In this document: positions 1,970 through 35,512 of the stretch, in pieces
Layout: every line of letters starts with the position of its first letter
How positions within the stretch are numbered: position 1 is the stretch's first letter
Origin: Escherichia phage HK578
Length of the DNA stretch: 43,741 nt
Sequence record: NC_019724.1
Strand: one strand, 5' to 3'
Program-made: the position numbers and the translations under genes
Notes under the pieces: generated by a model
What the model saw: only the letters and a program-made list of their open reading frames with translations
What the model was told of the DNA's origin: nothing
Databases searched by the model: none

Positions 1970-3490
1970 ATGACCGTTAACGTTGACAACCAGCACCCGC
2001 TCTATGCGCGCATAGCGCCAGAGTGGAAAATGATCCGTGACTGCGTAGCAGGGGAGCGCGCCGTGAAGGCGTGCGGGCCATTGTACCTGCCACACCCCGC
2101 AAGCGGGGACACCACCGACCCGAAATCACGGGCACGCTATAAGGCATATAAGCAACGTGCTGTCTTCCTGAACGCCACCGCCCGCACACTGAATGCCCTG
2201 TTAGGCGTGGCCTTCGCCAAACCGGTGAGTCTGGACCTTTCCGGGGCAATGGCTGACCTGATTGATGACGTAGACGGCAGCGGGATGCCACTGGCGCAAC
2301 TACTGCGCGGCGCTATGTCGGAAGTGCTGCAATCGGGCCGCGCAGGCTTTATGGTGGACTATGACCGCCAGGCGCATTTTGACGAACTGGGTAACGTAGT
2401 GCCGCAGACCGCCGCTGAAATGGCGGCACACCGCCCGCTTATCCGCCTGTATACGGCTGAACAGATCATCAACTGGCGGCAGACACACGGCGTCGACACG
2501 CTAATCGTGCTGAAGGAGACGGACGAAATCAGCACCGAAGACCCGGACGACTTCGCAAACCACGAAGTTACGATCTGGACCGAGCTTCGCATGATTAACG
2601 GTGCGGCACACGCCCGCCGCTGGTTTTACAACGCGGACACGTCCGAGGTGCAAATGGACTTGCCGCGGGGATTCACCCGCACCGACCTTGTACCTCTGGT
2701 GGACGCTGCCGGTAACGCGCTTACGCAACTGCCTTTCTGTTGGTGTGGCGCGGTGGATAACAACGCGACACCGGACGCCGCACCGCTGGCGGATATTGCG
2801 TCCATCAACATTAAGCACTACAACGCCGAAGCAGACGTCGCCGAGATTGCGCACATCGTGGGGCAACCTACCCTCATTGCGACTGGTCTGACCCAATCAT
2901 GGGCGGACAAGAACCTGAAAGGCGGCATCGCGCTCGGGGCAACTAAGGGCGTTATCCTGGGCCAGAACATGGACGCTAAACTGCTTCAGGCGGAGGAGCG
3001 CAACTTGTCTGTTGCACTGTGTGAGCGCCGAGAATTGCAAATGGCTAAACTGGGGGCGGCCCTGGTCGAGAAGGGGACCGCACCCAAGACGGCAACCGAA
3101 GCGGCCTACGATGCGCAGACAGATAACAGTATCCTGTCACTGATTGCCGGTAACGTTGAGAAGGCTTTCAACCGTGCGCTGCAAATCGTTAAGCTGTTCA
3201 CCGGCGACACCGCCGACCAGCGCGTAACGCTGAACAAGTTCTACACTGAAATCACGGTTGATGCGCAGCTTATGACCGCGATGATGGCAGGTGTGCAGAC
3301 CGGTACTGTCCGACTTGCAGACTTTATCAAGTGGATGATGGCCCAGGGCGTTATTGATGACTCGCAAACCGTCGAGCAGGTGGAAGACGAACTGCGAAAT
3401 CAGAATCCATTGCCTCAAATGTCCCCGGATGCGGTAGAATCGACCGAAGAAGCCCCGGACGAGGTAGCGGACAATGGCGAAGACAATTAA
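1970..3490 (+). CDS. portal protein
   Basis: 506-aa ORF immediately after TerL with SD AAGGAAA; size, position and acidic C-terminus typical of portal. Confidence 0.75.
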   Translation: MTVNVDNQHPLYARIAPEWKMIRDCVAGERAVKACGPLYLPHPASGDTTDPKSRARYKAYKQRAVFLNATARTLNALLGVAFAKPVSLDLSGAMADLIDDVDGSGMPLAQLLRGAMSEVLQSGRAGFMVDYDRQAHFDELGNVVPQTAAEMAAHRPLIRLYTAEQIINWRQTHGVDTLIVLKETDEISTEDPDDFANHEVTIWTELRMINGAAHARRWFYNADTSEVQMDLPRGFTRTDLVPLVDAAGNALTQLPFCWCGAVDNNATPDAAPLADIASINIKHYNAEADVAEIAHIVGQPTLIATGLTQSWADKNLKGGIALGATKGVILGQNMDAKLLQAEERNLSVALCERRELQMAKLGAALVEKGTAPKTATEAAYDAQTDNSILSLIAGNVEKAFNRALQIVKLFTGDTADQRVTLNKFYTEITVDAQLMTAMMAGVQTGTVRLADFIKWMMAQGVIDDSQTVEQVEDELRNQNPLPQMSPDAVESTEEAPDEVADNGEDN

Positions 3491-4577
3491 TCAATATATG
3501 GCGGATCGAATGATTCGCCGTCACATCTTCACCCAGCGCCTGAGCAATGACCAGGCGCGAAGGGTGCTGTCCATGTGGGAGAAGTTCCGGCCTACATTAC
3601 TGGGGGAGCTGACCGAGTTGCTTGATGGCAAATCGTCAATGAATAACCGGGCACTTTCCACCCTGCTAACGCAAATCGACAAGACCGTAAAAACGGAACT
3701 GCGCACCGAGTTTAAGGCGTTGGCTGAAAGCCTTCAGGAGTTTGCAGACACCGAGGCCGATTATCTCGCCGACACATTGACGGCAGCGGTCCAGCCGGTG
3801 GTCGCCGTACCCGCGGTCGAGGTAGTTGGCGTAGTGACCGGTGCGCAGATCGCAGCGACTGCGATGAAAAACCCGTTCCTGGGAAATACCATGATGCAAT
3901 GGCCCGACTCACTTTCTGAGTGGACCAGGACGCAGATCGGTAATCAGGTGCGGGCGGGATTCATCCAGGGCAAGCCAACGATGGAAATTATCGCGGACGT
4001 GAGGCGCGCGCTAGGCGGTCGTAGTGCGCAAGCCATCTCAAGCGTTGTTAAGTCCGCAGTCAACCACTATGCGGCGACCGCCCGCGAACTAATGGTAAAA
4101 GCAAATGACGATATTCTCGAAGGTCGCCAATGGTTATCTACATTGGACACGCATACTTCTCCCATGTGCCAGCTACGCGATCGCCTGTTTTATCCGGTTG
4201 ATGTTACCCCCGACACCAAAGGAAAGCGCGGCGGGAAAGTGGTGGCTGGGTCACAATATGGCGCTGGTCCGGGCAAGCTGCATTATTGTTGCCGGTCTAC
4301 GGAGACGTGGAAGGTTAAAGGCATGGAAGATTGGCCCAGTGGTAAGCGTCCGGCACTGAAGGCTGACGCGGGTCGATTGCTGAGTGAGCAGGTCGACGCG
4401 CAGACCGATTTCTTCTCATGGGTGCAGCGCCAGCCGCGCCATATCCTGGAAGAATTATACGGAGTGCAACGCGCAGACCAGATTATGCGAGGCGTGAAAG
4501 TGCCGAAGATGTTCACTGATACCGGCGAACTAATGACTATTGCACAGCTTAAAAACCGGGGGTTATGGCGTGATTAA
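3474..4577 (+). CDS. head morphogenesis / minor capsid protein
   Basis: 367 aa, overlaps portal 3' end; position after portal as in Mu F / SPP1 gp7-like genes; family assignment from position only. Confidence 0.55.
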   Translation: MAKTINQYMADRMIRRHIFTQRLSNDQARRVLSMWEKFRPTLLGELTELLDGKSSMNNRALSTLLTQIDKTVKTELRTEFKALAESLQEFADTEADYLADTLTAAVQPVVAVPAVEVVGVVTGAQIAATAMKNPFLGNTMMQWPDSLSEWTRTQIGNQVRAGFIQGKPTMEIIADVRRALGGRSAQAISSVVKSAVNHYAATARELMVKANDDILEGRQWLSTLDTHTSPMCQLRDRLFYPVDVTPDTKGKRGGKVVAGSQYGAGPGKLHYCCRSTETWKVKGMEDWPSGKRPALKADAGRLLSEQVDAQTDFFSWVQRQPRHILEELYGVQRADQIMRGVKVPKMFTDTGELMTIAQLKNRGLWRD

Positions 4578-4899
4578 ATATGCAGCTATTGGACTGATTA
4601 TCGGTCTGGTGGTAGGATTCTGGCTAGGTGACTCCTATCGCACTGGCGTAGTGGCGGAGGCGGCGCAAGAAGCGCAAGCCCAAGCCCAACGGCAGCAAAC
4701 TAAAGTTGTTGAGCGCTCCGTGCAGGCCGAACAGGCACGCGACGTGGAATACCGGACTATCACGAAAGAGGTTGTTAAATATGTTACGCGCCCTAACCGC
4801 CCTGATTGTAGTTTTGATGCTGAGCGCGTGCGGATCAAGCAACGTGCCGTTGATGCCGCTAACGGAGTCGGCACTGCGACCGCCGTGCAAGTTCGATAA
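4570..4899 (+). CDS. putative i-spanin (Rz-like)
   Basis: GTG start after GGGGG SD; N-terminal TM helix IKYAAIGLIIGLVVGFWLG followed by charged helical periplasmic domain (AEAAQEAQAQAQRQQ...); overlapped by +1-frame lipoprotein ORF. Longer TTG-start version begins at 4540. Confidence 0.5.
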   Translation: MIKYAAIGLIIGLVVGFWLGDSYRTGVVAEAAQEAQAQAQRQQTKVVERSVQAEQARDVEYRTITKEVVKYVTRPNRPDCSFDAERVRIKQRAVDAANGVGTATAVQVR

Positions 4900-5011
4900 C
4901 CCGTCTGCGGACCCCGACGAAGATTTGATGATTGACGTGAAAAATATGGAATGCGGGGCTAAGCTAAGGGCGCAGGTGCTGGAGTTGCAGCAAATAATTA
5001 AGGGGCCGTAA
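4781..5011 (+). CDS. putative o-spanin (Rz1-like lipoprotein)
   Basis: ATG 4781 with SD AAGAGG; signal peptide MLRALTALIVVLMLSAC with lipobox LSAC; mature part short, Pro-rich, with Cys; in +1 frame overlapping 3' end of 4570..4899. Confidence 0.55.
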   Translation: MLRALTALIVVLMLSACGSSNVPLMPLTESALRPPCKFDNPSADPDEDLMIDVKNMECGAKLRAQVLELQQIIKGP

Positions 5012-5022
5012 TGGCCCCTTTT
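5002..5022 (+). terminator. intrinsic terminator after spanin genes
   Basis: GGGGCC-gtaat-GGCCCC followed by TTTT; stop codon of o-spanin lies in the loop; second hairpin GGGGC-tttc-GCCCC at ~5053-5066. Confidence 0.6.
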
Positions 5023-5077
5023 CGTCAGTCTCATTTTTGTGTCCTCGTTGTTGGGGCTTTCGCCCCGTTTGGTTTAG

Positions 5078-5485
5078 TTAAAGTGCTTCAAGAATCTCGT
5101 AAAACTTATTCGCCAGCGCCTGGCGACGTTCGAATTTCTCAGTGATAACCAATTCAGGGCGGTTAAATCTCTTTGCGTGTATGTTCCAATTGTGGATTTC
5201 CGTCTCCATTATTTTCTTACGGTTATAGTCGGTGTTTTTGATGCTAAATTCCTTGATTGCGTTGTTAAGAAAATCAGTCATATACTCAATGTCGGATATC
5301 GTAACTTCGAACGTGCGGGCTTCGATTACGCTATTGGTGCGAAGTACGACGACGCCGCCGTGGTAGGTGTCGACTACCATATACTTGTAAGTCACCCCGT
5401 CCCACTCCGGATCGAAAGGGCGACCAAATACGTCGTCGGCTTTCCAGACTTTCAGGTACGGTGTTTCTTTGATTAATGTTGGCAT
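5078..5485 (-). CDS. hypothetical protein (moron)
   Basis: 135-aa ORF from ATG 5485 (MPTLIKETPYLK...) with SD GAAGGAAAA; opposite strand to flanking head genes; appears AT-richer than neighbours by eye. Confidence 0.6.
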   Translation of the reverse strand: MPTLIKETPYLKVWKADDVFGRPFDPEWDGVTYKYMVVDTYHGGVVVLRTNSVIEARTFEVTISDIEYMTDFLNNAIKEFSIKNTDYNRKKIMETEIHNWNIHAKRFNRPELVITEKFERRQALANKFYEILEAL

Positions 5486-5520
5486 CTTGTTTTCCTTCAT
5501 ATCTCTGTTGGTGTGCAACC

Positions 5521-5550: not shown

Positions 5551-5639
5551 GCGAATTTTGCGATTATTTTTATCGCTGATAATATTAAGGCGTGAAGTCA
5601 AGCGGGTGGCCCGCTTTGCCACAATCCCAGGGGGATAGC

Positions 5640-6344
5640 ATGAAACTTACTAAAGCAGAATATGACGCGTTGCCGGAAGGTATGAAGGCGCTTTTTGTTG
5701 CCGATGGTGACGGGTATAAATCAACGTTCATGACCGCCGAAGAAGTACAGGCGGAGATCAAGGGTCTGAAAGACAACAACGCGAAGCTGGTTAGCGAGAA
5801 GAAAGCAGAAGCCGAACGTCGCGCCGAAGCCGAGCGCCTTGCGAAAGAGAAAGAGGAAGCCGCCGCGCGCAAAAATGGCGACCTCGAAGCGATCGATAAG
5901 TCCTGGAAAGATAAGTTCGCAAAACATGAAGCGGACACATCGGGGAAAATCGAAGCCTACCGCAAGCAGATCCACGATCTCACCATCGGCAGCGCTGCCA
6001 AAGACCTGGCGTCGAAGCTGTTCGGTAAGAATGCGGGCATCATGCAACGCCACGTAATGGACCGCCTGACGCTGGAAGACGGCGAAGACGGCAGCTTGAA
6101 AGTGCGTGTCTTGCAGGATGGCAAACCGTCCGCGCTGACTATGGAAGAGCTTGAAAAAGAGTTCCGTAATAACGCCGATTTTGCATCCGTCCTGGCTGGC
6201 ACGCCAGCCGGTGGCGCTCCTAGCAAACCGACGCAGGTTGTCGAAGATGTGAAGTCGAAAATCACTATGGGCCATAGCTTCGGCATCACTGACCTTACGA
6301 AACAGGCAGGTGATATCATCGCTAAGATGGGCGACGACGAGTAA
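5640..6344 (+). CDS. scaffolding protein
   Basis: ATG 5640 with SD AGGGGGA; acidic, Ala/Glu/Lys-rich coiled-coil-like sequence (AEERRAEAERLAKEKEEAAARK) immediately upstream of major capsid gene. Confidence 0.6.
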   Translation: MKLTKAEYDALPEGMKALFVADGDGYKSTFMTAEEVQAEIKGLKDNNAKLVSEKKAEAERRAEAERLAKEKEEAAARKNGDLEAIDKSWKDKFAKHEADTSGKIEAYRKQIHDLTIGSAAKDLASKLFGKNAGIMQRHVMDRLTLEDGEDGSLKVRVLQDGKPSALTMEELEKEFRNNADFASVLAGTPAGGAPSKPTQVVEDVKSKITMGHSFGITDLTKQAGDIIAKMGDDE

Positions 6345-16308: not shown

Positions 16309-16916
16309 CCACGTTTAAATTGTACGGCGTCTTAGGGCGTCGTTTTGGTAAAGTGCATAAGCTGGACTGCTTCACACCGGGCGAAGGCATCACAGGCCTG
16401 TGCGTGAAGCTGCCAGGGTTACAAGACTTTTTAATGTCGGCCCACCTGGAAAATATTATGTTCAAGGTGCGCAAGGGCAATCACACAATGACCGGATACG
16501 ACGAGTTGGGAGAGTTCCACGGCGACCGCGTAGTGACCATCGCACCGGTTATGACCGGCGCAAAACGCGGACTAGGCCAATTACTGGCGGGAGTAGCCAT
16601 CGTGGTGGCGTCGTTCTACACCGGCGGGCTTGCTACTGCCGCTTTTGGTGCTTCCGCCGCGACCGCTGCCGCGATTGGTACGGCGACGTTCTCGTTCGGG
16701 ATGTCGATGGCGCTGGGTGGCGTTATGCAATTGCTGTCGCCACAGCCGAAAGGATTGCAGACACGGCAGGATGTGGACAACAAGGCGTCTTATGCGTTCG
16801 GCGGACCGGTAAACACAACCGCGCAAGGTACGGCACTTGGTGTATTATGGGGCGAGCGTGAGATCGGCGGCGCTATTATTTCCGCCGGAATCGTAACAGA
16901 GGATTTGAACGAATGA
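16299..16916 (+). CDS. tail assembly protein I-like
   Basis: 205 aa with Gly/Ala-rich hydrophobic C-terminal half; between K-like and J-like genes. Confidence 0.6.
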   Translation: MAMTTFKLYGVLGRRFGKVHKLDCFTPGEGITGLCVKLPGLQDFLMSAHLENIMFKVRKGNHTMTGYDELGEFHGDRVVTIAPVMTGAKRGLGQLLAGVAIVVASFYTGGLATAAFGASAATAAAIGTATFSFGMSMALGGVMQLLSPQPKGLQTRQDVDNKASYAFGGPVNTTAQGTALGVLWGEREIGGAIISAGIVTEDLNE

Positions 16917-19900
16917 CGATTGTCTACGACGTCACAGGCCATAAAGGCGGCGGTGGCAAACAGCACACCCCACAGGAGACACCAGATAGCCTGCATTCGC
17001 TGGCTAAAATCCGCATCTTGCTCGCACTGGGTGAAGGTGAGTTCGAAGGCATTCCCGACCCCAACGAATTACGGCAGCGCGTTTATTTGGACGGCACACC
17101 GATCCAGAACGCCGACCGATCCGAAAACTTCCCCGGCGCGCGCGTGGAGTTCCGCCCCGGCACACAGCACCAGGACGTGATTCACGGATTTTCCGCGGTG
17201 GAAAGCGAGCAAACCGTAGGCGTAAAACTGGAATACGGCACGCCGTGGGTGCGCCAGATTAACGACACCAGTCTTGACGCCGTGCGCATTCGCATCGGCA
17301 TTCCAGCCCTGTACACTAACGAAGATAATGGCGACCTGGTGGGCGGGCGCATCGACTATAAGATAGTTGTGTATACGGATAACGCCGACCCGCGTGAGTT
17401 CAGATTCGCCGCCGTTGGTAAAACAATGTCGCTATATGAGCGCGATCACCGCATCGAGCTACCGCCGAACGTTAACACCGGCTGGCGCGTGGAGGTGCAC
17501 CGCATAACGGCAGACTCCACATCGGCGAAAGTGGTTAATGATATCCGGGTGCAGTCCATCACTGAGATTATCGACGCCCGCCTGCGTTACCCGCTAACCG
17601 CGCTGTTGTTCGTGGAGTTCGACGCCAAAGCGTTCCAGAACATCCCGCGCGTGTCCATCAAGTGCAAAGGCCGCAAAGTTCTAATACCGAACAACTACGA
17701 CCCGATTAATCATACCTATTCCGGGGACTGGGATGGTACGTTTAAACGCGCCTGGACGGATAACCCTGCGTGGCACTGGTACGACATTTGTATTACTGAG
17801 CGCTTCGGCCTCGGTCGGCGTATCAAACCGCAAATGCTAAATCGATACGCGCTCTACCAGATTGCGCAGCGCTGCGATCAGTTGGTCAGCGACGGCAACG
17901 GTGGTCGCGAAATCCGCTTTAAGAATGATATGTACATTCAGTCACAGACGGATGCCTGGACCGTGCTTAAGGATTTGGCTGCCATCTTCGCCGGAATGAC
18001 CTGGTGGGGCAACCAGATGTTGAATATCGTCAGTGACCAACCGGTAGCCGCGGTGTCCCACACTATTACCAACGCATCTGTTATTGATGGGCGATTCGAC
18101 TACGCATCTGGCAGCCAGAAAACTCGCTATTCCACATTCGCGGTAGCATACGGCAATCCGAAAAACCACTATGATGACGCCATCGCAACGGGCCAGCGCG
18201 TCGAACTGGTGCGCCGCCATAAGATTAACCGTCTCGATATTACGGCGATCGGCTGTACGCGCGAATCCGAAGCGCAACGCCGGGGGCACTGGGCGCTAAT
18301 CTCAAACCAGCTTGACCAGCAAGTTAGTTTTAAGGTGGGCATGGAGGGGTTGTTCTTTATCCCTGGTAGCGTAGTTGCGATCGCAGATACTAATATTTCT
18401 GGCGGATTCGAGACTCGGGGTGGGCGTCTATTGTCGGACCCCGGCACGCGTATCGTGCTGAACACAGACAGCGAAATCACATTCCGCCCCGGCGATAAGT
18501 TCCTGGTCCGCACAGATAGCGGAAATGTTGAGACTCGCGAGATCGCCAGCGTCAACGGTAACAAGGTAACGCTAAAAACCGCACTGGATGCCGACCCGAT
18601 CCCCGATCAGCCGTTTTGCGTTGACGGGAATGATATCCAGTTGCAAAAATTCCGCATCACCGATCTGGAATATGACGACTCTACGAGCACTTTCTCGGTG
18701 CGCGGGATTGAATATAACGATAGCAAATATGATGCCGTTGATAATGGCGCGCGCCTAGACCCGGGCATCTTTACGCAAGTGCCGGACGGTGTAATGAAGG
18801 GGCCAGAATCCGTGACCATAACCCCGTCGCAGATTTCAACGCAAGGCCAGCTAATCACCAACGTGGATATTGTATTCCCTCCGGTGAAGGATGCCGTGGT
18901 GTATGAAATCCAGTGGCGACGTACCAGCTTGCAGAATATGGAAATCCAGTGGGGAAACGACTGGGTGAACATCCCACGCACGGCATCAAACGGTGCGCAC
19001 ATCCATAACGTGTTTTCCGGTAACTATCAGGCACGCGTCCGCGCGATCGGTATGGGGGAGATTTCATCCCCGTGGGTGTCTTCCGAGATCACGCCGGTGG
19101 AAGGTCGCCTCGGCGGGCTTAACGCACCTATCATCACCAACGCGATTTCTGGCCTTCACCAGATTTTGTGGAAGTGGAACCACAACAACGCCGCGACGGA
19201 TATTTCATACACCGAGCTTGAAGTGCGCAAGACGGGCGAGACGGAATGGAAATTCCTGTCCAACGTCCCATATCCTGGCGCGGAGTACGCGCAAACGTCG
19301 CTGGAGTTCGGCATATACCAGCAGTTGCGCGCCCGTGTAGCGGATAAAATCGGCAACCTGTCGGACTGGTCAGCCCCGTTCGAAGGCCAAGTGAGTGACA
19401 AAGTTGACGAGTACATGAAGGGACTTGATGACGAGTTCTTGACTTCCGAGGATGGTAAACACTTCCAGGAAGCTATTAACACGATCCCGCAAGGCATTTA
19501 CGAGGCGATGCTCACTGACGCGCAGCAATTATTTAACGCCCGTGCCGAGTACAAAGGGATTTACGCAGAAATCAAGGTGGCTTATAACGTAGCCGCGGAT
19601 GCCCACCAGGCAGTAGCACAACTGGAGACGTTGATCGGCTCGCGCCTTGATGACGCGGAAGCATCAATCCACACGTTGCAGACCGCGCAAAGCACGCATG
19701 AACAAGCGTTCGCCCAGTACCAGCAAACTGTTGCCGCTAAGTTCGCCGATCAGGAAGCCGCCATCCAGTCAGTGCAAACGGCAACGGCGGATGTAGCTGG
19801 CGCGCTGGCGGAGTACAAGACCCAGGTCGCGGCACAGTTCGGTCAGCAGTCCGCCGCAATCGAGCAGAAGATGACGTCTTCGTTTAACCACTCTGGTGGT

Positions 19901-20365
19901 AGCGCCACATACAGCCTGAAGGCTGGCGTGACGTATAACGGGACTTACTACGATGCGGGTATGCAGCTTTCCGTAGTGGCGTCGGGCAGCGCGGTTAAAT
20001 CGCGTATCGCGTTCAAGGCGGACCAGTTCTACATAATGCATCCGTCTAATGGGTCGCTTTCGTCGGCGTTCATTGTTGACGGTGGGCAGGTGTATATTGA
20101 CACGGCACGCATCAAGGATGCGTCAATCAACTTCGCACAGATCACGGACACGCTGCAATCAAACAACTTCGCTTCCGGGTCGCGCGGATGGCGCATCCAG
20201 AAGGGCGGCGCTGCGGAGTTTAACGAAGTAACGGTCCGCGGCAGGCTGTACGCTGATAGTGGTGATTTTGCTTTTAACGGAATAAACAACACCGTGCAAA
20301 TTAACGGGAATGGGGTGACGGTTAACCTGCCTGGAGGAGGGAGGGTTGTATTAGGTACATTCTGA
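16913..20365 (+). CDS. host specificity / central tail fiber protein (J-like)
   Basis: 1150 aa, last and largest gene of the lambda-like tail tip block. Confidence 0.8.
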   Translation: MTIVYDVTGHKGGGGKQHTPQETPDSLHSLAKIRILLALGEGEFEGIPDPNELRQRVYLDGTPIQNADRSENFPGARVEFRPGTQHQDVIHGFSAVESEQTVGVKLEYGTPWVRQINDTSLDAVRIRIGIPALYTNEDNGDLVGGRIDYKIVVYTDNADPREFRFAAVGKTMSLYERDHRIELPPNVNTGWRVEVHRITADSTSAKVVNDIRVQSITEIIDARLRYPLTALLFVEFDAKAFQNIPRVSIKCKGRKVLIPNNYDPINHTYSGDWDGTFKRAWTDNPAWHWYDICITERFGLGRRIKPQMLNRYALYQIAQRCDQLVSDGNGGREIRFKNDMYIQSQTDAWTVLKDLAAIFAGMTWWGNQMLNIVSDQPVAAVSHTITNASVIDGRFDYASGSQKTRYSTFAVAYGNPKNHYDDAIATGQRVELVRRHKINRLDITAIGCTRESEAQRRGHWALISNQLDQQVSFKVGMEGLFFIPGSVVAIADTNISGGFETRGGRLLSDPGTRIVLNTDSEITFRPGDKFLVRTDSGNVETREIASVNGNKVTLKTALDADPIPDQPFCVDGNDIQLQKFRITDLEYDDSTSTFSVRGIEYNDSKYDAVDNGARLDPGIFTQVPDGVMKGPESVTITPSQISTQGQLITNVDIVFPPVKDAVVYEIQWRRTSLQNMEIQWGNDWVNIPRTASNGAHIHNVFSGNYQARVRAIGMGEISSPWVSSEITPVEGRLGGLNAPIITNAISGLHQILWKWNHNNAATDISYTELEVRKTGETEWKFLSNVPYPGAEYAQTSLEFGIYQQLRARVADKIGNLSDWSAPFEGQVSDKVDEYMKGLDDEFLTSEDGKHFQEAINTIPQGIYEAMLTDAQQLFNARAEYKGIYAEIKVAYNVAADAHQAVAQLETLIGSRLDDAEASIHTLQTAQSTHEQAFAQYQQTVAAKFADQEAAIQSVQTATADVAGALAEYKTQVAAQFGQQSAAIEQKMTSSFNHSGGSATYSLKAGVTYNGTYYDAGMQLSVVASGSAVKSRIAFKADQFYIMHPSNGSLSSAFIVDGGQVYIDTARIKDASINFAQITDTLQSNNFASGSRGWRIQKGGAAEFNEVTVRGRLYADSGDFAFNGINNTVQINGNGVTVNLPGGGRVVLGTF

Positions 20366-20369
20366 AACT

Positions 20370-20389
20370 AAAGCCCCGCCAGGGGCTTT
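20370..20389. terminator. bidirectional intrinsic terminator
   Basis: AAAGCCCC-gcca-GGGGCTTT between convergent J-like gene (+) and 20388..21320 (-). Confidence 0.6.
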
Positions 20390-21320
20390 AGTACATGTTG
20401 GGGAGGTACGGCAGCGGAGTTGGGATCGTAACGTCGGGTCTGTTGCCGATTTCGTACCTTACAATTCGTGAGCCAGTTCCCGACCTTACATATCCGCCGC
20501 TCATAACCACGCCTTTGTTTCTTAGTTCCTTGTAGGCGGGTATAGCCCTTGTATTGAACCCACACCTTAGTATTGGGAAGTAGGAGTCTCCAATATACTG
20601 ATTGCTACCCGACAGACTTATAAACCCAGACACAATAAGTGGTCTGGTAACTGTTGAAAGTGTACAGGCGCCTTTGTGGTTAAATATGTTTAACCCCGGC
20701 CCCGGCACGGGCGCAACCATCTGGAAAATAACCAAATCCATAGTAACACTTCCGGGTGTGTGCCCGGTATCATTTGTGTTTATGTTTGTGCATATCAACC
20801 GATTAACACCGTCGTACTCAACTGAAACACCAGAATTATCCCACCTGCCGAACGGTATGCCGTATATTGGAAGGGTGTAACTATCATGGAATGATATAGT
20901 TTGAGCAAATTTGCAGACAAGCAACCTGTCAGTTGTGGTTATCGATGTGAAATCCGTGCTGTCGGCAACGTAAAGCCCCTGCCCTGATGACCTAAGAACC
21001 TCAACTACAGTCCCTGAAAACTGCGTTACGCGGTCTGGATAGCCGTTCTCATAGCCAATAGATATTGTTCCGCTGGATTCTGTTGAAGAAAAGCCCTTTA
21101 TATAATAAACCTCAACACCACGATCTAGTTCGAAGGAGTATGCGCCATTGTTCGGCAGAAGAAACCTTGAAGCCCCTTCATTACCTTGAATAGGGAATGA
21201 CTTGCTAAACCCGCCACTTGAAACATTGAAGTTCCCCGCAAAATTCAAGGCACGCATACCCGCGGTGATTGTCATCGGGTTGCGTCCGTCATTAAGATCA
21301 ATGTAGATACCTTGTGCCAT
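20388..21320 (-). CDS. hypothetical Ser/Gly/Thr-rich protein (candidate adhesin/receptor-binding protein)
   Basis: 310 aa from ATG 21320 ([12 protein letters not shown]...) with SD GGGAG; start overlaps stop of upstream lipoprotein gene (TAATG); opposite strand to tail genes; function inferred from context only. Confidence 0.55.
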   Translation of the reverse strand: MAQGIYIDLNDGRNPMTITAGMRALNFAGNFNVSSGGFSKSFPIQGNEGASRFLLPNNGAYSFELDRGVEVYYIKGFSSTESSGTISIGYENGYPDRVTQFSGTVVEVLRSSGQGLYVADSTDFTSITTTDRLLVCKFAQTISFHDSYTLPIYGIPFGRWDNSGVSVEYDGVNRLICTNINTNDTGHTPGSVTMDLVIFQMVAPVPGPGLNIFNHKGACTLSTVTRPLIVSGFISLSGSNQYIGDSYFPILRCGFNTRAIPAYKELRNKGVVMSGGYVRSGTGSRIVRYEIGNRPDVTIPTPLPYLPNMY

Positions 21321-21550
21321 TAGTTCCACTCCCGAGAGCCATAATCACGAACTGAGCCACCATGCCCTTTAATTCCGTCATAACGAATATCAACTTCACC
21401 CGCCGGAACAACTACACCGCCTTTCCATTTAGCTACACATACGCCGCTTGCTTGCGTCGCGCACCAACCATCCGTACGCGGGCCAGAAGAGCAACCAACA
21501 GCCATGACTACTATCGCGGCAATGATTGCAGATTTGATTAAAGTTTTCAT
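21320..21550 (-). CDS. small lipoprotein (candidate superinfection-exclusion protein)
   Basis: 76 aa from ATG 21550 with SD AGGAGA; signal peptide [20 protein letters not shown] with lipobox-like AVGC; mature part has 3 Cys. Confidence 0.6.
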
Positions 21551-21630
21551 GGTATCATCTCCTGTATTAGGTTGAGTTTTAGTATTGCACCACTCAACCA
21601 AGAATGCAACCAATTTATGAGGATTCAGCT

Positions 21631-23472
21631 ATGGCAGCGGGTACACTATCCGTAACGAATAACAGCAAGGCGGTTGTCGGTGTAGGAACGACGTTTACCG
21701 CGTTTAATGCTGGCGACTTTTTATCGCTGGTAGTCGGGCAAGTGCCCTACACTGTTGCGATCGCGTCCGTCGAAAGCGACACCGCGCTTACGTTGGTGCT
21801 GCCGTTCGACGGCCCAACGGCAACTGGCCTCGCGTGGGATGGCGTTAAGCGCGATACCATGTCGCTGGCAACGATGGGTGTAACCGTACAGGCACAGAAA
21901 GCGTTGCGCTTGATGATCGCGGACGAAAACAACTGGCGCGCAATCTTCGGAGACGAAGAAGAGATCACGGTAACGCTGCCGAACGGGCAAGTTATGCAGG
22001 GTATGTCGTGGGGCTATCTGTCGCAATTGCTGAAGGAAGTTGACCCCGTTGAAATGCGCAACCTGCAACAACAAGCCACTACCGCGAAGAACGACGCCGT
22101 TACCGCAAAGAATCAAGCCGTTACCGCGAAGAACGACGCCGTTACCGCGAAAACGGGCGCGGAGACGGCGCGCGACCAGGCTAATACCGCAAAGACCGGT
22201 GCAGAGACGGCGCGCGACCAGGCTAATACCGCGAAAACGGGCGCGGAGACAGCACGGGATCAATCGCTGACTTACCGTAACCAGGCCGAGCAATTTGCTA
22301 ACAGCGTTAATCCGGATAACATTCTGGATCAAGTCGGTGTTGGTGCAAACCCGCGGCACTTACCGGATATTAACGCGCCTGTGAAGGGATTCTGCCGTAT
22401 TATCGCGGGTCAAACCGCGGGGGCGAATGGGTTTAGCGGGGCGGGATGGATCGCCGGTTACGACGGCAGCCAGTCTTATACCGGTATGTTTGTGCAGCCC
22501 GACGGTAACCGCATTTTCGCAGGCGGAAAATCACCAGCTATCGCTGGCGGGTTGTGGCAGTGGCATGAGGTGCCGACTATAGATCGAGCTAATACATTTA
22601 CGCAATCGCAAGAAATTTTAGCGTCATACCCGGGCCTTGAACTGACAACAACCGCGCTCAATAACAACAATCTAGGGAAGACAATCCTTATTGAAAATGA
22701 TGCGGGCGATGCTCTTAACTTTTTCTACAAGATGCTCGACGACGACACGGGACGTTACACCATTAGACTACCGAAGCCTGGGTATAAGACGACGATGACG
22801 ATCGGGCTTGACGGAGGGTTGGCTCCAAACGGCAACTCGTTTAACATCGGTGCCGTTCAAGGATTGGACTTCAGTGTCGGGCAGCAAGGGTGGCGCGCGG
22901 TGGGCGGTGCGTGGACTAATGGCCCAACCAGCGGCAATCTGTTCGGGGCAGTATTCACCCATGCGGTGCAGGGTCTGAATGTCGGGGGGTATGACGCTAA
23001 TGGCACGGATAACCACTGGTTTATACAGCGCTTTTACGACACGTCGGCGAATATCTTTACGCGCGTGCAAGTGAACGACTACCCGTGGGGTAACTGGTAT
23101 AAAGTCACCACGTCCGCTGTGTCGGATGAACGCCTGAAGGATATCAAGGGCAATCTGAATGTGGAGGGTGCGCTGGATAACATCAACCGCATGGAGTTTA
23201 AACTGTTCTCGTTTAAAAATGAGAAGTCAGAAAGCAAACAGCCTGTTACGCGTCGCGGTGTTATCAGCCAGCAGATCCGTCTTATTGATAAAGAGTACAC
23301 AACGGAAGTAGGCGGATTCTACCACCTGGACCAGACCCCGATGTTGTTAGATGGTCTGGCGGCAATCAAGGCTCTGCGCGCGCGTGACGAAGCAAATAAA
23401 GCTGAAATCGCGGAATTGAAAGCTGCCGTGGCGGAATTGAAAGCTGCCGTAGCGGCGCTGTCTAAAGCATAA
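21631..23472 (+). CDS. tail fiber protein with C-terminal intramolecular chaperone (S74-like) domain
   Basis: ATG 21631 with SD GAGGA; nine TA(K/R)xxAx heptads; SDERLKDIKG motif near C-terminus (auto-cleavage signature of S74 chaperone domains); C-terminal AELKAAV repeats. Confidence 0.75.
   Translation: MAAGTLSVTNNSKAVVGVGTTFTAFNAGDFLSLVVGQVPYTVAIASVESDTALTLVLPFDGPTATGLAWDGVKRDTMSLATMGVTVQAQKALRLMIADENNWRAIFGDEEEITVTLPNGQVMQGMSWGYLSQLLKEVDPVEMRNLQQQATTAKNDAVTAKNQAVTAKNDAVTAKTGAETARDQANTAKTGAETARDQANTAKTGAETARDQSLTYRNQAEQFANSVNPDNILDQVGVGANPRHLPDINAPVKGFCRIIAGQTAGANGFSGAGWIAGYDGSQSYTGMFVQPDGNRIFAGGKSPAIAGGLWQWHEVPTIDRANTFTQSQEILASYPGLELTTTALNNNNLGKTILIENDAGDALNFFYKMLDDDTGRYTIRLPKPGYKTTMTIGLDGGLAPNGNSFNIGAVQGLDFSVGQQGWRAVGGAWTNGPTSGNLFGAVFTHAVQGLNVGGYDANGTDNHWFIQRFYDTSANIFTRVQVNDYPWGNWYKVTTSAVSDERLKDIKGNLNVEGALDNINRMEFKLFSFKNEKSESKQPVTRRGVISQQIRLIDKEYTTEVGGFYHLDQTPMLLDGLAAIKALRARDEANKAEIAELKAAVAELKAAVAALSKA
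22081..22263 (+). repeat. in-frame tandem repeats inside tail fiber gene
   Basis: 3 x 21-nt units (TAKNDAV / TAKNQAV) followed by 3 x 42-nt units (TAKTGAETARDQAN), nearly identical at nucleotide level. Confidence 0.8.
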
Positions 23473-32833: not shown

Positions 32834-34261
32834 TTAATTTTTTAAATCCTCGTCAGTAGCTTCAGACCACGCGGGGCGCGGGTCGTCGATAGGTGCTAAC
32901 ACCGGTTTAGCAGGTGCGCGCGTGATTTTATCACACAGCTTCGCCCACACTTTCGGTTTTTCGTCCTTCAGCACCTTCTCGGCATCTGTTGGGCTGAGCA
33001 ATGTTTCTTTGTACATCACATCGCGCTTGATCCGGGCCTTCGTGAATATTTCAATCACTTCGCTCTCGTCCGCCCACTTCCGGATCCCTTCCTTGCCTGC
33101 AACCATCTTGAGGCCCAGCGATTCGCCATCCCCAGCCATTACCGCTTTGAATACCGCGGACTCGATAGCTTTGATGTGCTGGCGCATTGCGTCCAGACCT
33201 TCATAAGCCTTGCGCAGTTCCGCCGCGCTCATAGCACCGGGGGCCGCTTCTTTCTTGCCCCGTTTAGCACGTCGTGCCGCCTTGCGGGCTTCGCGGGCCA
33301 TATTGAGGCCGTGGTTGGCGCATTCTTCCGCTGTCGCAATACTCTCGTCGTCGCCCAGGTCTTCGTCGGTTGCCGTTGGTGGTGTCATCGTATCGATTGC
33401 AGCCTTCGCCCTGGCGCTACACTGGTCCGCAAATCTGCACCACTGGCACGCATCAACGCTGGGGCGGAAGTCGGCACGGGTAAGCCCCTTCTTGCCGCGG
33501 GTGTACGCATCGAGAGCGGCGATAGCACGCTTGGACGCAAACTTCGCGAATATCTCCAGCGCTTCTACCGAAATATCCCACTCCGACGCCCCGCCGCAAT
33601 ACGGCTGGAAGATAACCAGGCGCACGGTCGTAATGTCGTACATAGTTTGCAGCTTGCGTAGCAGGCCCAGCGCGTACAACATAAGCTGTTTGTTTTCTTT
33701 TGCCTCGACCTTATGCCGCCCGGTCTTCAGGTCGCCAACAATCAGCATGTACGTGCCGTCGGTCTTTTTCATTACCATGGCCATATCGGCAGTACCGAAC
33801 GTTTTAATCCTGTTGCCGTCGCTCTCGAATCCTGAATGAAGGACGCGGGTCAGATCGGCGCGCATCTCAAGCTGAACAAACTCCGCCACTTCGAGGAGCG
33901 GTCGCCAGTGGTCGATGTACGCGTCGCACTGTTTCACCATGTCGTCGTTGACCAGTACGCCGCCTTTCGGTGCTTTCGGGTGGGCCTTTACTGGCCCCTT
34001 GCCTTCGTTCTCGACGTAGCACCCTTTATACGTCTTCGCGGTTATCAGCTTCTCCCCGGCGATAATGCGGTTTAGCACCACTTCAGATACGGTGTGCATA
34101 CTCGTACCGTTAATCGCCGCTTGCCCGGATTCGTTAGGGATATCTTTTTCCACCACCAGGGCGGCGGGGCAACCCATCCATTTTTTAGCACCGGACGGGC
34201 CGAGTAATGAGTGTTCCGTGTTGCTACCGGATTGCGTTTTACGTTTTGGTTTAATCGCCAT
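32834..34261 (-). CDS. RecB/Cas4-like exonuclease (DUF2800-type PD-(D/E)xK nuclease)
   Basis: 475 aa; nuclease motifs GTADMAMV, IVGDLKTG, QLMLYALGL and C-terminal Cys cluster CQWCRFADQC (Fe-S-type); adjacent to SSB-like and PolA genes. Confidence 0.7.
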   Translation of the reverse strand: MAIKPKRKTQSGSNTEHSLLGPSGAKKWMGCPAALVVEKDIPNESGQAAINGTSMHTVSEVVLNRIIAGEKLITAKTYKGCYVENEGKGPVKAHPKAPKGGVLVNDDMVKQCDAYIDHWRPLLEVAEFVQLEMRADLTRVLHSGFESDGNRIKTFGTADMAMVMKKTDGTYMLIVGDLKTGRHKVEAKENKQLMLYALGLLRKLQTMYDITTVRLVIFQPYCGGASEWDISVEALEIFAKFASKRAIAALDAYTRGKKGLTRADFRPSVDACQWCRFADQCSARAKAAIDTMTPPTATDEDLGDDESIATAEECANHGLNMAREARKAARRAKRGKKEAAPGAMSAAELRKAYEGLDAMRQHIKAIESAVFKAVMAGDGESLGLKMVAGKEGIRKWADESEVIEIFTKARIKRDVMYKETLLSPTDAEKVLKDEKPKVWAKLCDKITRAPAKPVLAPIDDPRPAWSEATDEDLKN

Positions 34262-34440
34262 TATTCCACCCGTGTAAACTGGACAATTACATATTTCACA
34301 TTAGCCATGCCCGCTTTTTCGACGCGGCGCTTAACTTCATTTTGTGCGTCAACAAAGCAATTGCTTGCGTTGGTGTTTTCAACAATAAAAGAGCAATGGT
34401 CGTCTAATTCGTGGCATGTTGCCATCACGAAGAATTTCAT
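34261..34440 (-). CDS. small Cys/His-containing hypothetical protein (not in ORF track)
   Basis: 59 codons (MKFFVMATCHELDDHCSFIVENTNASNCFVD...); start overlaps upstream stop and stop overlaps exonuclease start (TAATG both sides). Confidence 0.4.
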   Translation of the reverse strand: MKFFVMATCHELDDHCSFIVENTNASNCFVDAQNEVKRRVEKAGMANVKYVIVQFTRVE

Positions 34441-34691
34441 TATTTCGTCTCCCAGCGGTCAATCGTTCTTGCCTCGGATGCAACTGCGAAGCGAACATAT
34501 TCCAGATTGGAATCTGCCCAAATATAAAAGTCGGGATTAGTAAAGGTGGTGCGCTTAATTTGCGCGGGGGTATTGCGGCGTTTATCTAATACGGCAACGC
34601 GTGACTGAAAGCCGCCGATGCGTTCGAATAGCCAATAGCACGGGCGCTGGTCGCGGGAATCCACCGCCTCGATTAATGTAAATCGTGCCAT
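34440..34691 (-). CDS. hypothetical protein
   Basis: 83 aa, ATG 34691 with SD GAGGA, preceded by terminator-like hairpin. Confidence 0.5.
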   Translation of the reverse strand: MARFTLIEAVDSRDQRPCYWLFERIGGFQSRVAVLDKRRNTPAQIKRTTFTNPDFYIWADSNLEYVRFAVASEARTIDRWETK

Positions 34692-34704
34692 TGTCTCGTC
34701 CTCT

Positions 34705-34731
34705 AAAAAGAGGCCCGCAGATTAGCGGGCC
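34705..34731 (-). terminator. intrinsic terminator / attenuator
   Basis: minus strand GGCCCGC-taatct-GCGGGCC followed by TCTTTTT, between first and second genes of the leftward operon. Confidence 0.5.
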
Positions 34732-34739
34732 GGATAATA

Positions 34740-35171
34740 TTAGTCTTCCAGTTCGAAATAAGTTTCGACGATTTCTTTCAGGTCTTTGTGGAAGTCTTCC
34801 ACGTCGTCGTCTTCCAGTTTAGCGATTGATTTGATCTCGAACGCTTCCAGCAGGTCGTCAAATTCGTCGTTCGCGTCGTCGTCATCGCCCCCGGCGATAA
34901 TCGCGGCATACTGTTTGATCTCGTCGCGCATCTCTGCCAGCGGATCGGCATCTTTCTTACCTTTGCCTTTCGCCGTGGCTTTTTTACCTTTCGCCGGTTT
35001 TTCGTCTTCGGCTTCTCCATCGTCGTCATCTTCTACGACTTCTTTTTTGGCCTTAGACGGCTTCTTGTCTTCCTGCTTATCAACGGCAGCGCCAACGGTT
35101 TCATAATGCTTAGCGATGGTTTCCAGTGCTACTACGCCGCGAGTAATCAGGTTTACGATTTGTTCAAACAT
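34740..35171 (-). CDS. acidic hypothetical protein (first gene of early leftward operon)
   Basis: 143 aa from ATG 35171 (MFEQIVNLITRG...) with SD GGAGA; upstream part of track ORF to 35399 is treated as 5'UTR. Confidence 0.5.
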   Translation of the reverse strand: MFEQIVNLITRGVVALETIAKHYETVGAAVDKQEDKKPSKAKKEVVEDDDDGEAEDEKPAKGKKATAKGKGKKDADPLAEMRDEIKQYAAIIAGGDDDDANDEFDDLLEAFEIKSIAKLEDDDVEDFHKDLKEIVETYFELED

Positions 35172-35367
35172 GGTGTATCTCCAATTGGTTAAGTTTAGGT
35201 GTCGGCAGTAAACTTCGTCGGTGGCCTTAACATATTGCCAGGTTACGCGTTCTCCCTTTCGGGTAGTGGACCTGGTTATATAATCACGGTTGGGAATCCT
35301 GACACTTCGATCCGGCCCCTGCGTTGCCCCTCTCCAGTTTGCGTCCTGCATCCTGTCGACGAGGTGA

Positions 35368-35396
35368 ATATTAGATTGGTTGCAGAAGGGAGTCAA
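35368..35396 (-). promoter_or_regulatory. early leftward sigma70-like promoter
   Basis: minus strand TTGACT-17 nt-TAATAT; ATTGGTTGCA (35375-35384) lies in the spacer. Confidence 0.5.
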
Positions 35397-35407
35397 CAAC
35401 TAATTTC

Positions 35408-35441
35408 AAAAAAAAAGCGCCGAGGCAAAATGCAACGGCGC
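35408..35441 (-). terminator. minus-strand intrinsic terminator in divergent control region
   Basis: minus strand GCGCCG-13-nt loop-CGGCGC followed by nine T; would stop antisense transcription entering the leftward promoter. Confidence 0.45.
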
Positions 35442-35512
35442 TAACCAATAAGAGACAATGAGACGGGAATTATTATTACACGCGCGCGCGCCCGTTTCAA
35501 TATCCAAAGGAG

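Follow-up and report, generated by a model that had tools for sequence, protein, structure and literature searches.

A predicted LptD-specific host-recognition module downstream of gpJ in Escherichia phage HK578: a receptor-binding protein paired with a blocking lipoprotein

The genome of the Escherichia phage HK578 (NC_019724.1; the whole 43,741-nt stretch analyzed is referred to here as the window) carries a two-gene cassette downstream of gpJ, which is very likely the LptD-specific host-recognition module of a Dhillonvirus, comprising a receptor-binding protein (RBP) and a lipoprotein that would block the receptor. The initial annotation had suggested a receptor-binding/superinfection-exclusion module at this site, a suggestion now supported by homology to Rtp45 and to the RBP of the Oekolampad phage. 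The biology of such a module is already known: its locus, which receptor it uses, and the LptDE-bound structures of both homologues have been published. The homology, architecture, motifs, swap boundaries, and composition reported below come from the present analysis; LptD dependence and binding come from the literature on the homologues. Two genes labelled 'hypothetical protein' and 'membrane protein' in the HK578 phage thereby gain a specific predicted function, with a small practical gain.

The cassette is encoded on the minus strand and comprises a lipoprotein gene (21550..21320, 76 a.a) followed by the RBP gene (21320..20388, 310 a.a), the ORF calls of which match exactly the HK578 phage proteins HK578_024 and HK578_023, respectively. 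Both neighbors are transcribed in the plus direction. On one side lies a J-like gene for the central tail fiber/tail tip (16913..20365, 1150 a.a), with matches to Pfam FNIII-A_GpJ, Phage_Tail_Tip, and Phage-tail_3 and to PHROG 31 ('central tail fiber J'), and on the other lies the lateral tail fiber gene (21631..23472; PHROG 1980 tail fiber with a Peptidase_S74 chaperone domain). The start of the latter is likely 21631 rather than 21604, as this agrees with the annotation of the Bas14 phage (80-nt gap to the lipoprotein gene) and a GAGGA motif lies 8 nt upstream. These coordinates and strands confirm the antiparallel pair first noted between the J-like gene and the tail fiber, as well as the TAATG stop/start overlap of the lipoprotein gene with the RBP gene (minus strand, 21322..21318; one shared base), an arrangement compatible with translational coupling. 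The same one-base overlap is annotated in the Rtp, Bas14, phiEco273, Vet12397III, and mEp021 phages, and the layout of RBP and lipoprotein genes after J is common to these five as well as the JL1 and Oekolampad phages; in every locus examined, the pair adjoins J. A reading of the two genes as chance ORFs is ruled out by their Pfam matches, to PF24052 for the 76-a.a protein (E 8.9e-33; 112.5 bits, cut-off 27) and to DUF6453 for the 310-a.a protein (E 1.6e-123; 412 bits, cut-off 25). The initial observation of the cassette is thus confirmed.

The receptor-binding role first proposed for HK578_023 is supported by full-length homology to the RBP of the Oekolampad phage, solved on LptDE (PDB 9RPT_C; E 1.2e-41, query residues 1–310 against chain residues 1–321), which itself matches DUF6453 (E 2e-121). 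Compared end to end, HK578_023 shares 94.5% identity with its counterpart in the Bas14 phage (bas14_0025; 17 differences), 95.5% with that in the phiEco273 phage, 77% with Rtp44, and 33–35% with those in the Oekolampad and JL1 phages. The family of LptD-specific RBPs has been delimited by >30% identity over >99% coverage (bioRxiv 10.64898/2026.04.02.716166), and HK578_023 falls within it at full length, both against the Oekolampad type (33–35%) and the Rtp type (77–95%). It is therefore predicted to be an Rtp44-type RBP allele which binds LptD/LptDE on its extracellular face. Homology to a structural tail component had been named in advance as grounds against the cassette reading; the homologue found is a tail-tip RBP, and so supports receptor binding rather than refuting it. 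As first described, the protein is rich in Ser, Gly, and Thr (G+S+T 29.4%). A single-sequence AlphaFold2 model was uninformative (mean pLDDT 31.4, pTM 0.23), and the family is settled instead by sequence homology to the solved 9RPT_C chain, from which a fold like that of RBP_Oeko would be expected. The Oekolampad RBP was purified as a soluble protein before being solved on the outside of LptDE, and its complex formation with LptDE in vitro was slow and partial; the Rtp-type RBP failed to express and its structure was not solved. Database labels for the family vary: RefSeq gives 'membrane protein' for HK578_023 and several homologues, the PHROG 1265 match carries the category 'moron, auxiliary metabolic gene and host takeover', and the annotation of the mEp021 homologue is that of a structural protein of the virion.

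HK578_024 is predicted to be an Rtp45-type superinfection-exclusion lipoprotein. It aligns over residues 1–76 with Rtp45 in the LptDEM-Rtp45 complex (PDB 9RPS_D; E 1.4e-39), sharing 81.6% identity overall with only 6 of the 57 mature residues differing, and is 95–96% identical to its Bas14 and phiEco273 counterparts. In further searches, the PHROG match is to an unnamed family, PADLOC returned no match for either cassette protein, and NCBIfam gave only a chance match (E 0.099; 10.8 bits, cut-off 684). Rtp45 co-purifies with LptDE (interface of ~1000 Å2) and has been solved by cryo-EM, as a superinfection-exclusion factor, on the periplasmic side of LptDE (PDB 9RPS), where it contains a Cys30-Cys38 disulfide and its strand 30–35 pairs with LptD residues 318–323. 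Exclusion by lipoproteins of this type is drawn from the structure of the complex, and the accessible part of the literature yielded no plating assay. In the HK578 phage, residues 30–38 (CATQASGVC) are the same as in Rtp45. A lipoprotein with three mature Cys had been read from the sequence at the outset, and this is borne out by an N-terminal signal with K2 and K6 in the n-region, an uncharged hydrophobic core, and M-A-V-G-C20, fitting a lipobox of the PROSITE PS51257 type, together with mature Cys at C20, C30, and C38. G19 and all three Cys are invariant in the seven PF24052 family members aligned. The +2 residue is Ser21, not the Asp of the Lol-avoidance rule, which is compatible with outer-membrane sorting.

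On this basis, the receptor of the HK578 phage is predicted to be LptD and not FhuA, with LptD dependence suggested by the 94.5%-identical Bas14 RBP. LptD is the listed terminal receptor of the TheodorHerzl phage (Bas14), to which lptD loop-deletion mutants, Δ(Y658-Y678)::H and Δ(L394-V396)::Y, are resistant, and the Oekolampad phage (Bas18) is likewise LptD-dependent (S5 Table). The locus downstream of gpJ encodes an RBP and an exclusion factor in these phages (including bioRxiv 10.64898/2026.04.02.716166). The HK578 phage goes unmentioned in the main text of Maffei 2021, its genome being only listed among those used for the phylogeny (S6 Table). In a 2017 study, the HK578 receptor was called unknown; knocking out fhuA, lamB, ompF, and other genes conferred no resistance, and escape never occurred in wild-type cultures, the pattern that an essential receptor would give. 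An essential LptD as the predicted terminal receptor of HK578, the Dhillonvirus type phage, would account for this failure to obtain resistant mutants.

There is a slim chance that the architecture is as described but the RBP has drifted to another or a second receptor, with the lipoprotein blocking that protein instead. The locus is hypervariable, with alleles specifying FhuA, BtuB, YncD, or LptD, the HK578 RBP does carry its 17 differences from that of Bas14, and the Rtp-type phage Bas01 requires both NupG and LptD (bioRxiv 10.64898/2026.04.02.716166). However, different receptor classes go with protein families that are unrelated to one another, and the Bas14 and Bas18 RBPs, at 33% identity, both use LptD. 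Moreover, in its LptD-contacting segment the HK578 lipoprotein does not differ from Rtp45, and NupG specificity maps to a separate GpJ domain rather than to the RBP locus. LptD thus remains the favored receptor.

The cassette is set apart from its surroundings by composition and distribution. Its GC content is 47.2% compared to 54.5% for the whole window (standard deviation of 2.3% among segments of the same size); it is the GC minimum of the window, with values as low found only in segments overlapping it (0.7% of all segments), and its GC3 is 38–48% compared to 61–66% in the adjacent tail genes. The AT-richness first judged by eye is thus borne out by calculation. Across groups, cassette GC is 47–48.5% in the Dhillonvirus copies, 42–43% in Drexlerviridae, and 53–54% in the resident Oekolampad-type cassettes. 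At ~90% nucleotide identity, the HK578 phage shares the cassette with only two of ~150 Dhillonviruses, while it shares the flanks with all.

Cassette swapping across relatives had been proposed as a check, and nucleotide homology did reveal an allele exchange, with boundaries mapped to 20237–20253 and 21537–21550. At the first of these, homology to Oekolampad/JL1-type Dhillonviruses ends at 20243–20253, and that to Rtp and Veterinaerplatzvirus, both Drexlerviridae phages, begins at 20237. The exchanged part therefore includes the 3′ end of the J-like gene, its last ~40 codons (20240..20365, plus strand; RGRLYADSGDFAFNGINNTVQINGNGVTVNLPGGGRVVLGTF), as seen in both nucleotide homology and the C-terminal alignment. 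In the latter, the HK578 J protein groups with those of Bas14, Rtp43, and Vet12397III, apart from JL1 and Oekolampad; the phiEco273 J protein matches through ...NLPGG, after which it is shorter and its final residues differ. Since the J tip varies in step with the RBP allele, these ~40 codons appear to be inherited together with the cassette. The GpJ C-terminal tip has been described as a specificity-associated feature (bioRxiv 10.64898/2026.04.02.716166), and here it is presumed to be the docking site for the RBP. The J tip, RBP, and lipoprotein together form a 1.3-kb exchangeable block, of the Rtp/Bas14 type in this phage, and the cassette with the last ~40 J codons was probably imported from a low-GC, Drexlerviridae-like donor. 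With its mapped boundaries and intermediate GC, this unit offers a clean example of a host-recognition block passing from one phage family to another, and the boundaries could guide receptor-swap engineering.

The cassette had also been called moron-like, which holds for its composition and horizontal origin but not for its role: the virion presumably requires the RBP, whose gene is unlikely to be dispensable for lytic growth and would not be accessory. Regarding the features of a moron, the deviant composition and a hairpin are present, and a promoter appears only as a sub-threshold motif. An accessory moron, encoding a membrane protein for host conversion and a lipoprotein, neither with a role in the virion, is a very improbable reading, despite the PHROG and RefSeq labels which fit it and the deviant GC, antiparallel orientation, and own hairpin of the cassette. 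HK578_023 displays no N-terminal signal-like sequence on reading, its Oekolampad homologue was soluble on purification and solved bound outside LptDE, and its mEp021 homologue bears a virion structural annotation. The constant position of the pair next to J and the co-variation of the J tip with the RBP allele likewise speak against the moron reading.

The hairpin in question is GC-rich and lies between the convergent stops of the J and RBP genes (20367..20392; ACTAAAGCCCC-GCCA-GGGGCTTTAGT), where it can form on either strand with an 11-bp stem (folding energies of −20.0 kcal/mol on the plus strand and −18.8 kcal/mol on the minus strand). An equivalent hairpin (−14 to −19 kcal/mol) sits in the same place in all eight related loci, with differing sequences; that of the Rtp phage has a clear T-run and that of the mEp021 phage is annotated as a terminator. 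The HK578 hairpin is probably a bidirectional transcription terminator, left uncalled by a consensus terminator scan because its T-tract is short. The cassette had been described as bounded by bidirectional terminators, which probably stands for this flank but not for the other, a divergent start region between the lipoprotein and lateral tail fiber genes (21551..21630) with only a weak 8-bp hairpin. On the minus strand, a Shine-Dalgarno sequence (AGGAGA, 21563-21558) lies in this region, as does a weak promoter-like motif (TTGCAT, 21609-21604; 17 nt; AATACT, 21586-21581, preceded by TG). This motif is conserved in five Dhillonvirus loci as TTGCA[AT]-N17-AATACT and scores 7–8 of 12, below the calling threshold of the scan, and is a candidate promoter only. 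In neither cassette flank did the consensus promoter/terminator scan make a call; its three promoter-like and two terminator-like sites fell inside coding sequence and were no more numerous than in shuffled sequence.

Taken with the structures of the homologues, these features suggest how the module may operate. The RBP would be borne by the J-like central fiber, at its distal tip, and bind the extracellular face of LptD/LptDE, the essential LPS translocon, leading to irreversible adsorption and DNA injection. After export and lipidation at Cys20, the lipoprotein would go to the outer membrane's inner leaflet, in keeping with Ser at +2, where it would bind periplasmic LptDE and push a hairpin up the barrel lumen, displacing extracellular loop 4 and blocking RBP binding. 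The infected cell would be protected from superinfection and, more importantly, progeny would not be wasted on LptD in lysis debris. Transcription of both genes would run counter to the tail operon, probably starting at a weak promoter of their own, and end at the common hairpin. We infer the same LptD roles for the HK578 proteins, along with the timing and promoter of their expression.

It is scarcely credible that the lipoprotein is instead an accessory for RBP assembly or specificity, or a lysis component (o-spanin): while the stop/start overlap could imply stoichiometric co-production with the RBP and exclusion is attested by structure rather than plating, Rtp45 is seen at the periplasmic face of LptDE, a lipidated protein in the periplasm has no way of meeting a virion protein in the cytoplasm, and orphan PF24052 members exist in podoviruses lacking any DUF6453 gene. 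The o-spanin reading was rejected given the separate Rz-like spanin genes in the window (4540-5011). A receptor-blocking lipoprotein thus remains the preferred reading. As a more speculative and rather doubtful extension, the Rtp/Bas14/HK578-type and Oekolampad-type LptD modules may not be interchangeable, using different LptD loops or conformations, with each lipoprotein excluding its own type only. If true, an ancestor of the HK578 phage would have swapped its resident module, including the J tip, for one derived from Drexlerviridae, to escape exclusion by a competitor or resistance through LptD loop variants.

The closest known systems are Rtp44/Rtp45 of the Rtp phage (Drexlerviridae, Braunvirinae), bas14_0025/0026 of the Bas14 phage, and the phiEco273 locus, which share with the HK578 phage the same two Pfam families, gene order, orientation, one-base TAATG overlap, post-J position, terminal hairpin, and the C-terminal ~40 residues of J. 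The HK578 phage differs from Rtp in its backbone, which is that of a Dhillonvirus and not of Drexlerviridae, in a cassette GC (47%) between the donor-like 42–43% and the backbone's 54.5%, and in an RBP one residue shorter than its Rtp-type counterpart (310 compared to 311 a.a). The module of the Oekolampad phage (Bas18; PDB 9RPT/9RPW/9RQI), the commoner LptD type in Dhillonviruses, shares the families (PF24052 E 1.8e-21 for its lipoprotein), locus, and receptor, and the RBPs align end to end. However, identity is only 33% for the RBP, with indels at residues ~45–95, and 39% for the lipoprotein, the two Oekolampad genes lie 2 nt apart without overlapping, the cassette GC equals that of the backbone, and the J tip is different.

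More distantly, pb5 (oad) and Llp of the T5 phage follow the same logic (PMC9586334), with a dedicated RBP at the tip of the central fiber and a small outer-membrane lipoprotein from an accompanying gene, which engages the receptor from the periplasm and keeps the RBP from binding. There, the receptor is FhuA, a TonB-dependent transporter, and Llp acts by long-range allostery, whereas Rtp45 physically displaces EL4 via the barrel lumen. No homology to Llp was found for the HK578 lipoprotein (only PF24052 in Pfam at E≤0.1, and Rtp45 plus chance matches in PDB at E≤1), nor to Cor in Pfam, PHROG, and PDB searches, in libraries that may lack Llp and Cor entries. Cor of the T1, phi80, and N15 phages is likewise a small envelope protein encoded near tail genes which disables the phage's own receptor, FhuA, as opposed to the LptD predicted for the HK578 module. 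The likeness to Llp and Cor initially drawn for the lipoprotein thus holds as a functional analogy, with true homology lying instead with Rtp45, and with LptD as the predicted receptor.

The cassette in the HK578 phage comprises two minus-strand genes flanked by a plus-strand J-like tail-tip gene (16913–20365; Pfam FNIII-A_GpJ and Phage_Tail_Tip) and a plus-strand lateral tail fiber gene. The first encodes a lipoprotein of 76 codons (21550..21320; Pfam PF24052 "Phage lipoprotein family", E 8.9e-33) and the second a receptor-binding protein (RBP) of 310 codons (21320..20388; Pfam DUF6453, E 1.6e-123), with a one-base overlap (TAATG). The ORF coordinates and junction sequence confirm this arrangement as initially annotated and, given the two Pfam matches, we consider both ORFs to be real genes. 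The suggestion that bidirectional terminators bound the cassette holds only at the 3′ flank, where a hairpin with an 11-bp stem (20367–20392; −19 to −20 kcal/mol on either strand) is structurally kept in 8 related loci and matches the position of an annotated terminator in the mEp021 phage; a consensus promoter/terminator scan did not call it. From the 5′ flank (21551–21630), by contrast, genes start in both directions; it has a good Shine-Dalgarno sequence, and its only promoter-like motif stays sub-threshold in the consensus scan.

The longest ORF of the lateral tail fiber gene begins at 21604. An alternative start at 21631, however, is preceded by a GAGGA Shine-Dalgarno sequence and agrees with the Bas14 annotation, so that the lipoprotein gene probably lies 80 nt away rather than 53 nt. 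This gene also contains in-frame tandem repeats, one (22080–22250) with a 21/42-nt period coding for TAKN(D/Q)AV and TAKTGAETARDQAN units, and another (23398–23455) with a 21-nt period coding for AELKAAV close to the C-terminus, which are possible length-variable coiled-coil segments.

The 310-a.a. product is an exact match to HK578_023 and, as initially described, is Ser/Gly/Thr-rich (29% Gly+Ser+Thr). It matched end to end (E 1.2e-41) with PDB 9RPT chain C, the RBP of the Oekolampad phage (Bas18), whose structure was determined at the outer face of LptDE, the essential outer-membrane LPS translocon. Identity was highest to the RBPs of phiEco273 (95.5%) and TheodorHerzl (Bas14; bas14_0025, 94.5%), followed by Rtp44 of the Rtp phage (77%) and the Oekolampad/JL1 type (33–35%). 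LptD is given as the terminal receptor for both TheodorHerzl and Oekolampad phages (BASEL study, S5 Table), and spontaneous lptD loop-deletion mutants resisted the seven small siphoviruses sharing the module. For this locus, a 2026 preprint (bioRxiv 10.64898/2026.04.02.716166) sets >30% identity and >99% coverage as the bounds of an LptD-specific RBP family, and the HK578 protein falls within them. Its "membrane protein" label and PHROG category ("moron, auxiliary metabolic gene and host takeover") are misleading.

The 76-a.a. product is an exact match to HK578_024 and fits a bacterial lipoprotein precursor (K2, K6, a hydrophobic core, M-A-V-G-C20, and Ser at +2), with exactly three cysteines (C20, C30, and C38) in the mature part, as first noted. 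It matched PDB 9RPS chain D (E 1.4e-39), a structure in which, according to its depositors, Rtp45 of the Rtp phage is bound to Shigella LptDE-LptM. Overall, the HK578 product is 81.6% identical to Rtp45, differing at 6 of the 57 mature residues, and residues 30–38 (CATQASGVC), which in Rtp45 carry the Cys30–Cys38 disulfide and strand pairing with LptD residues 318–323, are unchanged. G19, C20, C30, and C38 are invariant in an alignment of seven family members.

The two structural matches support the proposed receptor-binding/superinfection-exclusion module and sharpen it to the LptD class. The RBP, at the tip of the J fiber, would bind LptD from outside; that of Oekolampad inserts deeply into an open state of the LptD barrel (~1700 Å2 interface). 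The lipoprotein would be produced in the host cell after infection, receive its lipid, and reach the outer membrane, where it would occupy the periplasmic side of LptDE between LptE and LptM and push a hairpin up the lumen. Extracellular loop 4 would thereby be raised by as much as 20 Å, such that the RBP could no longer bind; periplasmic binding, the lumen hairpin, and loop 4 displacement are all seen in the Rtp45 structure. Blocked LptD would protect against superinfection and progeny loss on debris. Both actions on LptD are established for the homologs and we infer them for HK578; no plating assay for exclusion by Rtp45-type lipoproteins was found in the accessible literature. A 2017 study called the HK578 receptor unknown, with knock-outs of fhuA, lamB, ompF, and six other candidates giving no resistance and wild-type cultures never escaping the phage. 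This fits an essential receptor, as such a receptor would be missing from knock-out collections.

The cassette was initially judged AT-richer than its neighbors, which the computed GC bears out (47.2%, versus 54.5% for the window). Only 1163-base windows overlapping the cassette are as low (0.7% of all windows, about 3 sd), and GC3 is 38% and 48% in its two genes, versus 66% in J and 61% in the fiber gene. Separately, GC is below average (48–51%) at 34001–35500, near the minus-to-plus-strand gene switch, where the AT skew flips at around 35500.

Compared with a phage collection lacking HK578 itself, the window outside the cassette shares 91–94% identity with many Dhillonvirus genomes. By Megablast, only phiEco273 and TheodorHerzl share the whole 2-kb region (~90% identity), while about 150 other Dhillonviruses match the flanks only. 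Homology to the Oekolampad/JL1 type ends at 20243–20253, within J about 40 codons before its stop, and picks up again within the opening codons of the lipoprotein gene (21537); 20237–21550 is instead homologous (72–77% nucleotide identity) to the Drexlerviridae phages Rtp and Veterinaerplatzvirus. Comparison across related phages thus locates swap boundaries at 20237–20253 and 21537–21550. Over its last ~40 residues, J clusters with Bas14, Rtp43, and Vet12397III, apart from JL1/Oekolampad, and the phiEco273 J agrees save for a shorter, divergent extreme end. Since the J tip groups like the cassette, the exchanged unit, judged by sequence, is the J tip, RBP, and lipoprotein together, which suggests that the tip docks the RBP; a link between receptor class and the C-terminal tip of GpJ is already reported (bioRxiv 10.64898/2026.04.02.716166). 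Cassette GC is 42–43% in Drexlerviridae and 53–54% in the resident Oekolampad type, the same as the backbone. The three Dhillonvirus copies lie between (47–48.5%), suggesting that the cassette came in from a low-GC donor and has since partly ameliorated.

Another low-GC ORF that runs against its neighbors lies at 5078–5500 (minus strand; 140 a.a. from the ATG at 5500), between Rz-like spanin genes (4540–5011, plus strand) and a plus-strand gene (5592–6344). The 500-base window 5001–5500 has 45.8% GC and a reversed AT skew. This ORF matched no Pfam or PHROG family. It makes a stronger candidate than the cassette for a true moron.

Related genes occur elsewhere. The temperate phage mEp021 (MH706966) has a complete J/DUF6453/PF24052 module (1762–2915 of stretch L008), with an RBP 60% identical to that of HK578 (annotated "virion structural protein"), a lipoprotein 46% identical, and a terminator annotated between the RBP gene and J; in a lysogen, expression of this lipoprotein would hence be predicted to block LptD and serve for prophage immunity. 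Rtp45-family lipoproteins also occur as orphans in Gordonclarkvirinae podoviruses, with tblastn matches in ~77-kb genomes including SU10, ECBP2, EP335, and ManiMatter_Bas94. In the Kuravirus SU10, SU10_0104 (3426–3707 of stretch L007; PF24052, E 2.6e-36) conserves the lipobox Cys and both disulfide Cys. These orphans lie in stretches of small early genes that lack a neighboring DUF6453 RBP. For these podoviruses, O-antigen and LPS core are the only receptors considered in the BASEL follow-up paper. The orphans may mean that these phages block LptD, whether because LptD serves as their terminal receptor or to keep rival siphoviruses out. The orphans are perhaps more novel than the HK578 cassette itself.

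The cassette offers little that is new, as the locus, the receptor, and both homolog structures have already been published, and the BASEL study included HK578 in its genome analysis. A "bona fide RBP locus downstream of gpJ" has been described for Drexlerviridae, Dhillonvirus, and Queuovirinae, and the HK578 cassette, by its homology, is a member of the LptD class with the Rtp allele. The likeness first drawn to the T5 Llp and phi80/T1 Cor lipoproteins stands in working logic, the homology being to Rtp45. The module would work like T5 pb5/Llp, and its lipoprotein like Cor, yet Pfam and PDB searches detected no sequence relationship to either system, and blocking by the HK578-type lipoprotein would be steric, through the barrel, rather than allosteric.
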